Of a DNA stretch of 64,000 nucleotides, positions 52,607 to 58,251 are shown piece by piece; the stretch's first letter is position 1, and each line of letters starts with the position of its first letter. Both the position numbers and the translations under genes were made by a program. Under the pieces are notes generated by a model. The model ran no database searches. It saw only the letters and a program-made list of their open reading frames with translations, and was not told the origin of the DNA. The stretch is from Shigella phage Tf. Location: the sequence record OR980947, one strand, 5' to 3'.

Positions 52607-52630
52607 AGGCTACTTCGGTAGCCTTTTTTG
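52607..52630 (+). terminator. rho-independent terminator (UUCG tetraloop)
   Basis: aggctac ttcg gtagcct followed by tttttt. Confidence 0.6.
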
Positions 52631-52644
52631 ATATGGGAGGATGA

Positions 52645-53544
52645 ATGGCTAAAGCAGAACTTGATAAATACTACACACCAGACGAAGTAATAAGTGTGTG
52701 TGAAGAGAAGCTACAAAAGGTCTTTAAAGGCTCTATTTCGTGCATTATAGACCCCTGTGCAGGTGACGGAAGATGGAAAGACTCTTTTAAGAGGGTTTGT
52801 CAAGATGTTGTGCTATACGACATCGAACCAGACTCTGAAGATGTTAGCACAAGAGACTTCCTGAAAGATGACTTAGAAATTCCAGATAAGCCTTTTGCGA
52901 TTGTTACCAACCCTCCATTTGGTAAGGCAAACAGTCTGTCTACAAAGTTCTTTAACAAGGCTGCTACAATGAATCCAGACTACATTTGCTTCCTAGTTCC
53001 TATTAACTTTGGGAAGAAGAATCTTAGCAGACTTAGCAGAGAGTACACCTGCATTGATGAAGTAGAGCTACCTAACCTTCATTTTGAAAGGATTGATGGA
53101 GTTGCCTACTCAGCAAAAGAGTCATCACTACGCTGTAACTTCCAAATCTGGAAGAGACAAAAACGGATAGATAAAATTTGTAAGATTGTACCTGTGATAG
53201 TTGATGGTGTAAGAGTCTATAAGCGTGAGAAATTCACACTATACAGACCACCATGTCACAAGATTGATGGTAAAGAGCAGCCAGTTGGTGTTTTAGGTAA
53301 ACTAGATGGCAAAGACTTGTTCACGATTATCACGCATGGTCGCAAGGCTGGTACTGTGAAGGTTTTTGAACCAGATAAAGACAAGGTGTCAGTGAAACAG
53401 TTTATCGAACCACACATAGAAGGACTTTACTCAGCAATCAAACAAGAATGGTTTAATGATTTGAGAGATGGTTTTGCACTGAGTTATGCAGGCTCTATCA
53501 ACTCACAAGAAATCATAAATACTTTAGAAAAACACTTGCATTAA
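52645..53544 (+). CDS. DNA N6-adenine methyltransferase (gamma-class, TaqI-like motif order)
   Basis: N-terminal YYTP, SAM motif IDPCAGDG, catalytic NPPF (TNPPFG). Confidence 0.7.
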   Translation: MAKAELDKYYTPDEVISVCEEKLQKVFKGSISCIIDPCAGDGRWKDSFKRVCQDVVLYDIEPDSEDVSTRDFLKDDLEIPDKPFAIVTNPPFGKANSLSTKFFNKAATMNPDYICFLVPINFGKKNLSRLSREYTCIDEVELPNLHFERIDGVAYSAKESSLRCNFQIWKRQKRIDKICKIVPVIVDGVRVYKREKFTLYRPPCHKIDGKEQPVGVLGKLDGKDLFTIITHGRKAGTVKVFEPDKDKVSVKQFIEPHIEGLYSAIKQEWFNDLRDGFALSYAGSINSQEIINTLEKHLH

Positions 53545-53601
53545 TAAAAGAATTTATATAGTATACCTGTAAACAAACCTAGTAGACGAGAGAGAGCAAC
53601 T

Positions 53602-54441
53602 ATGAAATTCAAAGAGTTCCAGAGCAAAACACCTTGCAAGATTGATTTCGTTTGTGGTGTAGCTTCCTTCTTCATGGGGTACATGGATTGGGCTAACTGT
53701 GCAAAGCCTTACTCAGCAAACCGTAGCATTGAACGACGAATTGCTAAACCTTACCTTAATGAAGAACTTCGTGAGGTGGATTTACGTTCCCGTGTTACGG
53801 GTGTACTGTTCAATGGAGAAGTTATCAACATTGATTCTCATGCGCGTGTAGAGAACTGGAAGAATGGGAAGTTAGGTGCTCCCAAGAACGGCCTTGTCTA
53901 TGTGACCCTGTTTGCTGTTAATTCACAGGAAGAAGTAGATTTCCTCTACGACCAAGAAAACTCACTGGACTCACGAGCCACAAATGGTGACCAAGTTACA
54001 ACTGCAATACTACGCTCTGGTTATAAGCCACAGACAGCGTTCACCAAGAAATTTACTGGTGCTGGCGTGTGGGCCTTATTAGGTCTCCGTGGATGCCTTG
54101 ATGAAGCATTTGTACTCTATCAAGAAGAGCTTAAACTTATTGATGCACTCGGCATTGATAAGGATGAGATGGATAAGTACAAAGAGAAGACTGTAAACGG
54201 TGTTAAGCAGAAGTGTGAACTGCGTAAAAAGTACTCTGCTCCAATTATGGCAGCAATGCTTAAGAGCTTCAAAGAAAACCCTGAAAAAGCTACAAAGTTC
54301 TGGTTGGACTACCGTGATGATGATAAGTCTGTAAGCAGCTTCTTAGATGCTATGAAGACCCAGTATGACCAGAATGGTGGTGTGTTTCAAGGTTATGTAA
54401 TGTCACAAGCTGACGTTGCATTTAGAGCTTATAAGGACTGA
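53602..54441 (+). CDS. ParB/Srx-like domain protein, paralog A (function unknown)
   Basis: ParB-like motif INIDSHARVENW; homologous over most of its length to ORF 57492..58223 (KYSAPIMAAML vs KYSSGIRAAML, FWLDY vs FWEDY); directly downstream of a methyltransferase. Confidence 0.35.
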   Translation: MKFKEFQSKTPCKIDFVCGVASFFMGYMDWANCAKPYSANRSIERRIAKPYLNEELREVDLRSRVTGVLFNGEVINIDSHARVENWKNGKLGAPKNGLVYVTLFAVNSQEEVDFLYDQENSLDSRATNGDQVTTAILRSGYKPQTAFTKKFTGAGVWALLGLRGCLDEAFVLYQEELKLIDALGIDKDEMDKYKEKTVNGVKQKCELRKKYSAPIMAAMLKSFKENPEKATKFWLDYRDDDKSVSSFLDAMKTQYDQNGGVFQGYVMSQADVAFRAYKD

Positions 54442-54442
54442 T

Positions 54443-54676
54443 ATGCAAGTTAAAAAGATGATGGTCAGAGTTGCTCTCAAGTATCTGGGGGCAGCTACAC
54501 AATACGAAGTAGCAGAGTACCTCTCTGCAAAGTTTGGTAAGAAATATCTCCCATCGGATTTTACACAGACCTTTATAGACTTAGAGAAGACGAAAACTAT
54601 CACTAAGTTACCTGTTAAGCGTCGTAACTTTCGTAATGGGAAACCTACAGGTTTTGGGAACCTCTATGTAATGTAA
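54443..54676 (+). CDS. small putative winged-helix DNA-binding protein
   Basis: ATG overlaps upstream stop (tgatATG); LKYLGAATQYEVAEYLSAKFG resembles an HTH. Confidence 0.3.
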   Translation: MQVKKMMVRVALKYLGAATQYEVAEYLSAKFGKKYLPSDFTQTFIDLEKTKTITKLPVKRRNFRNGKPTGFGNLYVM

Positions 54677-54680
54677 CTAA

Positions 54681-54706
54681 AAGGCTGCTTCGGCGGCCTT
54701 TTTTAT
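54681..54706 (+). terminator. rho-independent terminator (UUCG tetraloop)
   Basis: ggctgc ttcg gcggcc followed by ttttttatttg. Confidence 0.6.
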
Positions 54707-54765
54707 TTGTATTTTGTGCAGAGTGCTGTATAATTGTTGTCACGATAAACTAAACAGGAGAACCA

Positions 54766-55314
54766 ATGAAGAAATTGATTCTAGGTTTGTGCTTAATGTT
54801 TACAGCACACTTATCTTATGCAGTTGACTGCCCAGAGCTATCAATTAGCCAAAAAGTAAACATGTTAAAAGCTTACCAGTATGGTGAGAATAATATGGGG
54901 AAAGGCTGGGGTATTACTCTAGCAGCTATAGCCTTACAAGAGTCAGAGTTAGGTCTGAAGGTAGAGAATAAAAAGACCCACGACTATGGTATTTTCCAGA
55001 ATCACTTGAAGACTGTTGTAAAGCGTAACAAAATTAGTCCTAATGTGGCTAAAAAGAAACTCTTAAAAGATTTTGATTATGCCGCTAAAGAAACACATAA
55101 AGAGCTTGAGTTTTGGACAAAGGTGCATGGTCAGCCAAAGTCAAAGAAGACTTTACAAAAAGTTTTAGCATCATATAATGCTGGGTATTCGTACAAAATT
55201 CCTAAAGCTAAGAAATACTCTCAAGATGTCTATAACAATATGAAAGTCATCGCTCAATGTGAATTTGCAACAAACATTTCTAAGGTAAACCATGAAAAAA
55301 TTAAGAAAGTCTGA
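54766..55314 (+). CDS. secreted lysozyme-like / lytic transglycosylase-like protein (candidate endolysin)
   Basis: Signal peptide MKKLILGLCLMFTAHLSYA; ALQESELG...DYGIFQ resembles SLT/lysozyme catalytic region. Confidence 0.35.
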   Translation: MKKLILGLCLMFTAHLSYAVDCPELSISQKVNMLKAYQYGENNMGKGWGITLAAIALQESELGLKVENKKTHDYGIFQNHLKTVVKRNKISPNVAKKKLLKDFDYAAKETHKELEFWTKVHGQPKSKKTLQKVLASYNAGYSYKIPKAKKYSQDVYNNMKVIAQCEFATNISKVNHEKIKKV

Positions 55315-55987
55315 TGAAGTATTGTGTCATGCTTATGACTTGCATCCTCATGAGTTAGGTCTTGATTCCTGTGTATGGACTCCAGAACAGTGCAGGGATT
55401 TTGAAGACACTGCAAGAGAAGTTGTATGTTCACTTGAAGAGTTCCACACTTCAGAACCAGTTGTGAACGTTGTGGATAAAGAGACGGGGCAATCTATAGG
55501 TGTAAGACGTGACAGTTTAGTCATAGTCAATAAAGACCTTGTAGAAAAAGGTAACCTCATCTTAGCAGATATTGATGGTGTTCTTACAAATTTTAATCAC
55601 GAAGATTGCTCAACGGAACTGATTGATGGTTCATTTTCACAGTACACTAATTTGCTTGACTCTGTAAGTGCAAAACCAACGTATGTTTTCAATATTATTG
55701 ACGCAATCTCTAATCATGCTACTATTGGACTCTTGACAGCGAGGGGTGAATCTCAGAGAATACCTACTGAGATGTTTTTAAGGCATTACATAGAGCATGA
55801 TTACATGCTTTTTATGCGTGGTTTTGGAACTAACTCTATAAGTGCAGAAAGTTTAAAGGTTAGGATGATTCAGTCTTGCATTCTTCCTTATTTTAATATA
55901 GTATGCTTTATAGAAGATACAGAGAAGAATGTTCAGAAGGTAAACAGAATCCTTCCACACATCAAAACCATGTTAGTTAAACATTGA
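55292..55987 (+). CDS. HAD-superfamily phosphatase-like protein (possible nucleotidase)
   Basis: HAD motif I DIDGVLT, motif II GLLTARG, downstream acidic motif; Cys-rich N-terminal extension. Confidence 0.45.
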   Translation: MKKLRKSDEVLCHAYDLHPHELGLDSCVWTPEQCRDFEDTAREVVCSLEEFHTSEPVVNVVDKETGQSIGVRRDSLVIVNKDLVEKGNLILADIDGVLTNFNHEDCSTELIDGSFSQYTNLLDSVSAKPTYVFNIIDAISNHATIGLLTARGESQRIPTEMFLRHYIEHDYMLFMRGFGTNSISAESLKVRMIQSCILPYFNIVCFIEDTEKNVQKVNRILPHIKTMLVKH

Positions 55988-55997
55988 GAGAAAACTT

Positions 55998-56462
55998 ATG
56001 AACAATATCATTACGGTAGCACTGGACGTTACGGCAAACAAATCTGAAGTGGTTCGTAACATTATCAAGAACAACTTCGAGGGTAAAATCTTTCGTGCTG
56101 TCAATGTAAAAGCAGATGGTAACATTCGGGAGTATCGTGCTCTTTTGAATGTTAAGAAACACGTAAAAGGTTCTGGCTCAACGACAGCACACAAAGAAAA
56201 CCTGATGACTATCTATGATATGGGGATGGCTTCAGAGTTAGGTGCTGAAGGTATCGTTAAAGAAGGTGCTCCGTATCGCTCTTTCAATCTGGAAACTGCT
56301 CTTATGCTTTCCTTTACAAGTGGTTCTAAAACAACTACTTATCTCTTTACTGATGCTGCAACGGTATCTGCTATTAAGGATAGCACTGTCAAAGCTGGGG
56401 TAGCTGCTGCTGCAAAAGCTTCTTCGATGGCTGCGAATATCCTTGCTAAAGTCCTCGGTTAA
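55998..56462 (+). CDS. hypothetical protein
   Basis: 154 aa ORF followed by strong terminator. Confidence 0.3.
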   Translation: MNNIITVALDVTANKSEVVRNIIKNNFEGKIFRAVNVKADGNIREYRALLNVKKHVKGSGSTTAHKENLMTIYDMGMASELGAEGIVKEGAPYRSFNLETALMLSFTSGSKTTTYLFTDAATVSAIKDSTVKAGVAAAAKASSMAANILAKVLG

Positions 56463-56473
56463 GGTTAAGATAC

Positions 56474-56496
56474 AGGCTCCTTCGGGAGCCTTTTTA
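56474..56496 (+). terminator. rho-independent terminator (UUCG tetraloop)
   Basis: ggctcc ttcg ggagcc followed by ttttt; identical to the hairpin at 58229. Confidence 0.65.
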
Positions 56497-56513
56497 AATT
56501 TCAAGGAGTATTA

Positions 56514-57398
56514 ATGAAGCCGATGTTCAAATATCTTGGTGGTAAAACAAGAATATTAAAAGAGTATGAGCGTTTAGGTGTCTTTCCAGACAACTGTACA
56601 AACTTCTATGACCTGTTTTCAGGTGGTGGTTCAGTGGCTATCTGGGCTTATAACAGATACCCAGAGGCAAAAGTGTTTATTAATGAGATAAATAAACATA
56701 TTATAGGTCTTTACACAACTTTCAGAGATGACTATGAAAACTTCATGGAAGAATTTGAGTACTTGTCAAAAAGGTACTTAGCCTTACCTATGCAGGAAGA
56801 GTATGCCGTGAAAGGTCAGCGTCATAACCGTCTACGCTATAAAATGTATTACAGTGTAAGAGAGGAACTTCTTTTGCTTGGTGAAGAGGGAGCATATGAC
56901 TACAGATACTATGCCAGACAGTTTTTCCTTCAAAAACTAAGTTTTGGTGGTGTATGGCAGACAACTAAAGAGATGAAAGGTCACTATGCAACACCTTGCG
57001 GGTATTTGCTGGAAGAAGAGATTTTCTTCACAAAAACTAAAGAATCACTATCCGAGTTTTACAGTTTTATCACCGATGAAAGGGTAATACTTAGCAGTGA
57101 ACCTTATGACAGGGTTGACATAGAACATGGAGGAGGTACAGTTATTTACTGTGACCCCCCGTATATCAACACCAACCAGAAATATGGTGCAAAGTTTGAC
57201 ATTGAGATGTCTGTAAAATTATGCGAAGATATGATTTCTTGGGGGGAGTTAGGCTCTAAAGTTTTGATGTCAAACTCTCAGTGGGATGGATGGGCAAAGC
57301 TAATTCCTGAAAATTTTAACTTGACAGAGGTTAGTCATTCATACACAATACATGCACAGAGAAGCAAAGATATTAACGAAGTAATTATTCACAACTAA
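56514..57398 (+). CDS. dam: Dam-family DNA N6-adenine methyltransferase (alpha-class)
   Basis: N-terminal YLGGKTRIL, SAM motif DLFSGGGSV, C-terminal catalytic DPPY. Confidence 0.75.
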   Translation: MKPMFKYLGGKTRILKEYERLGVFPDNCTNFYDLFSGGGSVAIWAYNRYPEAKVFINEINKHIIGLYTTFRDDYENFMEEFEYLSKRYLALPMQEEYAVKGQRHNRLRYKMYYSVREELLLLGEEGAYDYRYYARQFFLQKLSFGGVWQTTKEMKGHYATPCGYLLEEEIFFTKTKESLSEFYSFITDERVILSSEPYDRVDIEHGGGTVIYCDPPYINTNQKYGAKFDIEMSVKLCEDMISWGELGSKVLMSNSQWDGWAKLIPENFNLTEVSHSYTIHAQRSKDINEVIIHN

Positions 57399-57491
57399 GG
57401 TATCAAGTTATGGCAAACAGCATCAATGTAGCACTGAATGGCAAGGTTGTTAAAATTCACACTAAGATTATCAGTGTCGAGGATTTCCTTA

Positions 57492-58223
57492 ATGAAAAAC
57501 GTTACAAAGAAAAACCCTCGTCAACGAAATACACTTAAGCGTCTGAAAAGCAAACACCTTAATGGTGACGTATCACCAGACCAAACAGTAGTCCATGTGG
57601 CTAAGTTCGGTAGTTCACTGTTCATCATTGATGGTCACTCACGTCGAGAGGCGTGGAAAGTTGGTAACCTGACACGACCAGAAAACTTGATTGCAGTTAT
57701 ATACCATGTGAACTCCATATTGGATGTCACAGATTTGTACACTCATTTTGACTCTGAGTTAGCAAGAGAAAAACCCTCAGAAGTTTATTACGGAAATATG
57801 AAGATGATTTCTTTCAACCCAGAGTCAGAACTGATGAAAGCATCTTGGGCAACTGCTATTAAATATGTTGCTGCATACTACGGTGTACAACAAGTATCTA
57901 ACACTGAAACAGTTAAATATCTTAATGACTTTAAAAATGAGCTGGAACAAATTGATTCTCTTGAAGTACAGCTTAAAGGTGTAGTAAACGCAAAACGGAA
58001 ATATTCTTCTGGGATTCGTGCAGCAATGTTAATTACACTACGCCTATATGGTGATGCTGCATTTTCCTTTTGGGAAGACTATAATGACTACTGTGAAGGT
58101 ATGTCTAACAAATATGTTACAGAGGTATACCAACTGGCATTACAAGCTGGTCGCGGAGCACAGGCTGATAAGTTGTTGATGAATCAAGCGATTTCACTTG
58201 TCAACTATTACAGTCAAGAATAA
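57492..58223 (+). CDS. ParB/Srx-like domain protein, paralog B (function unknown)
   Basis: Motif FIIDGHSRREAWKVGNL; paralog of ORF 53602..54441; probable ATG at 57492 (gagga RBS) within tracked ORF 57438..58223; directly downstream of Dam methyltransferase. Confidence 0.35.
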   Translation: MKNVTKKNPRQRNTLKRLKSKHLNGDVSPDQTVVHVAKFGSSLFIIDGHSRREAWKVGNLTRPENLIAVIYHVNSILDVTDLYTHFDSELAREKPSEVYYGNMKMISFNPESELMKASWATAIKYVAAYYGVQQVSNTETVKYLNDFKNELEQIDSLEVQLKGVVNAKRKYSSGIRAAMLITLRLYGDAAFSFWEDYNDYCEGMSNKYVTEVYQLALQAGRGAQADKLLMNQAISLVNYYSQE

Positions 58224-58228
58224 TACAC

Positions 58229-58251
58229 AGGCTCCTTCGGGAGCCTTTTTC
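58229..58251 (+). terminator. rho-independent terminator (UUCG tetraloop)
   Basis: ggctcc ttcg ggagcc followed by ttttt. Confidence 0.65.

Follow-up and report, generated by a model that had tools for sequence, protein, structure and literature searches.

Why does a phage carry two DNA adenine methyltransferases (MTases) of different families, each followed by one of two related proteins, and what could these partners do? We addressed this question in a 64,000-nucleotide stretch of DNA (the window) from Shigella phage Tf (OR980947), a Felixounavirus (Felix O1-like, lytic, Ounavirinae). An original prediction, made from the sequence alone, had read the two adenine MTase families, each with a ParB/sulfiredoxin (Srx)-like paralog, as a modification or anti-restriction module. 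This core reading is supported by fold and adjacency, and all the open reading frames (ORFs) that it placed in the window are present there.

Two mobile methyltransferase cassettes

Both pairs of genes lie downstream of rIIA/rIIB, among the following features:

52607..52624, + strand: T1, UUCG-tetraloop hairpin and T-run after rIIB, left boundary of cassette 1 (terminator scan)
52645..53544, + strand: MTase 1, gamma-class N6-adenine DNA methyltransferase, 299 aa (motifs and profiles)
53602..54441, + strand: paralog 1, ParB/Srx-like partner, 279 aa (phrog_2615, family profile, AlphaFold model)
54443..54676, + strand: 77-aa ORF, third gene of cassette 1, function unassigned (translation)
54679..54702, + strand: T2, UUCG hairpin terminator, right boundary of cassette 1 (terminator scan)
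56474..56491, + strand: T3, UUCG hairpin terminator, left direct-repeat copy of cassette 2 (terminator scan)
56514..57398, + strand: MTase 2, D12/Dam-class N6-adenine DNA methyltransferase, 294 aa (PF02086 and motifs)
57410..58223, + strand: paralog 2, ParB/Srx-like partner gene, frameshifted here (DNA alignment, phrog_2615, AlphaFold model)
58229..58246, + strand: T4, UUCG hairpin terminator, right direct-repeat copy of cassette 2 (terminator scan)

The two enzymes belong to the classes originally proposed. MTase 1 carries the motifs YYTP, DPCAGDG and NPPF in gamma-class order, matches phrog_799 (DNA methyltransferase, E = 7e-19) and, well, the PADLOC model MTase_II (type II MTase, E = 2.7e-23), and is a marginal match to Pfam N6_Mtase (22.1 bits, cut-off 20.4). 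MTase 2 covers the whole PF02086 profile (E = 1.5e-23), contains DLFSGGGSV and DPPY, and matches phrog_56 (E = 6.6e-52) and MTase_II (E = 3e-30). Some relatives of MTase 1 carry a DarB-like annotation.

The two followers are homologous, as had been claimed: they are 26% identical over 215 residues (BLASTP, E = 2e-12), share phrog_2615 (E = 4e-64 for paralog 2), and are both recovered by a family profile from which all Felixounavirus sequences were left out (E = 2.3e-37 and 7.5e-14; the values for paralog 1 against the family profile range from 7.5e-14 to 3.9e-47). The shared motif ID(G/S)H(S/A)R..W (IDSHARVENW in paralog 1, IDGHSRREAW in paralog 2) is real, and its H, R and W are invariant across the family. 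The 243-aa protein that had been placed at 57492 captures the readable body of paralog 2 and misses a frameshift: the relatives are 270 aa long, their start codon being the ATG that corresponds to 57410, and the gene is intact in 13 related records. Alignment with the DNA of EC106 and SP116 reveals one extra A (+1) in the run 57510-57514 of the window, because of which the ORF from 57410 ends early, at the stop codon 57536-57538, and the body can be read only from 57438 or 57492 to 58223.

Near-identical UUCG terminators had been said to separate each of the ORFs that lie between the two pairs; we found exactly four such hairpins in the whole 64-kb window (matches to GGCNNCTTCGGNNGCC; 0 expected by chance), and they delimit three blocks, namely cassette 1, a lysin/PNK/unknown block, and cassette 2. 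In the middle block, the ORF labelled as a HAD phosphatase is better assigned to the PseT-like polynucleotide kinase/phosphatase family (phrog_3970, E = 1.6e-134), and the lysozyme-like ORF belongs to phrog_600, its SLT similarity being sub-threshold. The 77-aa ORF starts 1 nt past the stop of paralog 1 and is annotated in SP4, EC106 and ESCO56, the cassette-1 phages examined; it has no family match in Pfam, PHROG or PADLOC, and the winged-helix fold suggested for it finds support in none of the libraries.

The hairpins coincide with the boundaries of gain and loss. The T3 repeat AGGCTCCTTCGGGAGCCTTTTT is identical to T4, so that a 22-nt repeat flanks cassette 2, and each empty cassette site holds a single hairpin: in SP116, which lacks cassette 1, the T2 hairpin lies directly 3' of rIIB, and SP4, which lacks cassette 2, has one copy of the AGGCTCCTTCGGGAGCCTTTTT hairpin. 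In phages without cassette 1, homology to the query picks up again at position 2034, i.e., at 54678 of the window. Thus, the two units are shown to be mobile accessory cassettes bounded by terminator hairpins, with the MTase first and the partner directly downstream. The distance from the upstream hairpin to the MTase start codon is only 20-23 nt in each cassette (about 20 nt between T1 and MTase 1); because this leaves no room for a promoter, the cassettes are probably expressed by read-through from the rII operon, and recombination at the near-identical hairpins may carry them from one related phage to another.

Among about 257 Felixounavirus-type records, MTase 1 and paralog 1 are present in the same 9, and the Dam MTase is present in 14, with paralog 2 in 13 of these; MTase and partner are therefore inherited together in 22 of 23 records. 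The adjacency is strongly conserved, within this genus and also outside it, where unrelated phages add three more MTase families. In ESCO56 paralog 2 is deleted and in the window it is frameshifted, with Dam intact in both, so that the Dam MTase has no strict need of its partner.

Fold and distribution of the partner family

The proposed likeness of the partners to ParB and Srx holds at the level of fold, in both AlphaFold models (pLDDT 86.7 for paralog 1 and 77.5 for paralog 2), and fails at the level of sequence profiles, where Pfam, NCBIfam, PDB sequences and hhalign against canonical ParB gave no link to ParB. In Foldseek searches, the best PDB matches of paralog 1 were ParB, PadC and sulfiredoxin, and the best 12 of paralog 2 were all ParB, Noc, PadC or Spo0J, at modest scores (E about 0.01-0.02, TM 0.3-0.57). 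Matches in BFVD were labelled DndB, ParB, Noc and GmrSD-N (E down to 9e-6), and the best matches to named proteins among the viral models bore the label DNA-sulfur modification-associated (DndB-like, E = 9e-6). From these models, the family is predicted to combine an N-terminal ParB/Srx-type domain with a helical C-terminal domain, which aligns over the DNA-binding region of ParB in Foldseek matches of ~240 columns. Several D, E and H residues are invariant, and so are the motifs DNPxQR and, ~35 residues further, KLDGHTRALLW; aligned by eye, they parallel PNxxQPR, ~37 residues, and GERRWRA of ParB.

The family comprises 1,140 clusters at 50% identity, has no Pfam, NCBIfam or PADLOC model, and is essentially viral: the same peptide patterns retrieved 63 loci from IMG/VR and 3 from 185,579 species genomes. 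A co-oriented adjacent MTase was found for 16 of 42 non-redundant distant members (N6_N4 in 8, MT-A70 in 6, T1-type Dam in 1 and gamma-like in 1), and 11 of these 16 lie within 12 nt of the family gene or overlap it; counting the two window enzymes, five MTase families pair with the partner family. The MTase is mostly downstream in the distant loci, overlapping or a few nucleotides away, and each of the four metagenomic contexts inspected has an MT-A70 gene that shares 1-13 nt with the family gene. When the distant loci were searched with local profiles for the two most frequent families of partner MTases, 14 of the 21 matching ORFs were immediate neighbours of the family gene. About 60% of the distant members, e.g., in Rhizobium phage V1VFA-S and Erwinia phiEa21-4, have no adjacent MTase, so that the family must be capable of working without one nearby. 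In 6 loci a neighbour is an SNF2 helicase; a clamp-loader-like ATPase, a RecA-like protein, DNA polymerase A, metallophosphoesterases and an exonuclease also occur beside family genes, and the family is also present without MTases in replication modules.

Possible functions of the partner

Our leading explanation, held tentatively and at somewhat below even likelihood, is that the partner is a ParB/Srx-like accessory that helps phage MTases to act on double-stranded DNA, for anti-restriction. The partner would serve the MTase as a factor, with no enzymatic pathway of its own; it would probably use its conserved motifs, Q-R and D-G-H-x-R, to bind a nucleotide, and would engage double-stranded DNA and keep the MTase on the DNA or activate it there. 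New phage genomes would thereby be methylated fast and fully ahead of packaging, and the gain would be escape from restriction in the next host. The Felixounavirus Bas61 has been described as remarkably sensitive to restriction-modification systems, so that acquisition of an MTase would pay.

Alternatively, the partner could be a nuclease or could damage DNA in another way, with adenine methylation blocking its action; the MTase would shield phage DNA, in a restriction-modification-like or addiction cassette that degrades host or competing-phage DNA. According to a review (PMC5512222), there are reports of ParB/Srx domains acting as non-specific nicking enzymes or DNases, e.g., in a Bacillus ParB-methylase fusion and in Osa, and the invariant D, E and H residues are compatible with such an activity. 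Interchangeable MTase folds beside close family members are expected if only the methyl mark counts; for example, the family gene has an MT-A70 gene upstream in locus L008 and an N6_N4 MTase downstream in its sister L018, a swap for which a connection via the methyl mark accounts no less well than specific contact between the proteins. In addition, the only order of loss that a toxic partner permits is the one seen in ESCO56 and in the window, and loss of the MTase with retention of the partner was never seen within Felixounavirus. We nevertheless consider a nuclease unlikely: there is no match to a restriction endonuclease or defence system in PADLOC or Pfam, the family is hardly ever found on bacterial chromosomes, which are rich in restriction-modification systems, the many members without an adjacent MTase would be dangerous if the nuclease were unregulated, and in the distant loci the protective enzyme would mostly be made second.

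A DndB-like transcriptional or timing regulator, setting when and how much of the MTase (and its neighbours) is made and leaving the methylation reaction untouched, appears quite improbable. The DndB-like structural match, the placement of the helical half over the DNA-binding region of ParB and the occurrence without MTases in replication modules are in line with it, and DndB itself has been described as an ATP-dependent regulator of a DNA-modification operon (PMC12704722). However, the Felixounavirus cassettes leave no space for a promoter or operator before the MTase, the partner gene is downstream of its would-be target, and tight translational coupling to five MTase families is unlike a promoter-specific repressor.

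Similarly improbable is a circumstantial adjacency, with the family serving phage DNA replication, recombination or packaging in MTase-rich early accessory neighbourhoods: the neighbours of replication and recombination type and the majority of members without an MTase point that way, but MTases, only a few percent of phage genes by a rough estimate, are immediate neighbours in 16/42 cases, most local MTase-profile ORFs adjoin the family gene, many of the pairs have reading frames that overlap, and in Felixounavirus MTase and partner move as one unit into two different genome positions.

Relation to known systems

The accessory reading has precedents. Phage ParB-fold domains are often fused to N6_N4 MTases (PMC12704722), and phage ParB-terminase loci carry MTases (Iyer, Zhang and Aravind; PMC4738411). 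Like the PF02195 + PF01555 fusions of phages and prophages and the ParB-terminase loci, the present pairs join a ParB/Srx-type module to an adenine MTase on a phage, and in the temperate-phage contigs L012-L014 a small terminase gene follows 2-3.5 kb downstream of the pair, resembling the ParB-terminase large subunit loci (PMC4738411). The module here differs in being a separate gene outside the Pfam and NCBIfam models, in having H for the Box II glutamate of ParB (DGHTR versus GERR), and in pairing with five MTase families, whereas the fusions involve mainly N6_N4 enzymes; moreover, the Felixounavirus partner stands beside rIIA/rIIB and lysis genes, with no terminase. In most of the distant loci the partner precedes the MTase, just as the ParB part comes first, from N to C, in ParB-MTase fusions.

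DndB (phosphorothioation) and DpdB (7-deazaguanine) likewise have an N-terminal ParB/Srx domain, a DGxxR motif and a helical C-terminal region, and are encoded beside DNA-modifying enzymes, DpdB being the ATPase partner of DpdA. However, they are proteins of bacterial defence islands, whereas the partner family is phage-borne and MTase-linked, and it is matched by neither the DndB nor the DGQHR model of Pfam. The Dar system of phage P1 (DarB methylase-helicase, DdrB ParB-like; PMC5512222) unites an N6A methylase, an SNF2/helicase and a ParB/Srx domain for counter-restriction. A similar triad, SNF2 helicase, family member and N6_N4 MTase, occurs in L043, L059, L065 and L075. The Dar proteins are large, virion-packaged, polyvalent and encoded beside late genes. 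The ddrB-ParB model of Pfam-A does not match the family.

As for the cassettes, Arbiol et al. (2010) reportedly described modular shuffling at PeSL promoter/stem-loop cassettes in T4-type phages. There, as here, accessory units are gained and lost between short near-identical stem-loops that are possible recombination sites; the present repeats differ in that they are terminator hairpins to which no early promoter is attached, and in that the phage belongs to the Ounavirinae.

The best functional analogue of the proposed mechanism is the 5mYOX system, in which a thymine dioxygenase needs ParB-like proteins of the phage as activators on double-stranded DNA (O'Toole et al. 2026, PMC13229309). 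In both cases, a stand-alone phage ParB-fold gene, without a recognisable canonical DNA-binding domain, lies beside an enzyme that modifies DNA bases after replication. The 5mYOX-associated ParB differs in being a PF02195 member with the ParB nucleotide-binding residues kept and in having an Fe/2OG dioxygenase, and not an MTase, as its partner. Mutations of those residues had no effect in that system (PMC13229309), so that it would be unsafe to assume nucleotide dependence for the partner family. The module had been called undescribed, which is true of the partner family itself; the theme is known from ParB-MTase fusions, from the published connection of ParB-type proteins with phage MTases (PMC4738411, PMC12704722), and from phage dioxygenases for which activation by a ParB-like protein has been shown by experiment (PMC13229309).

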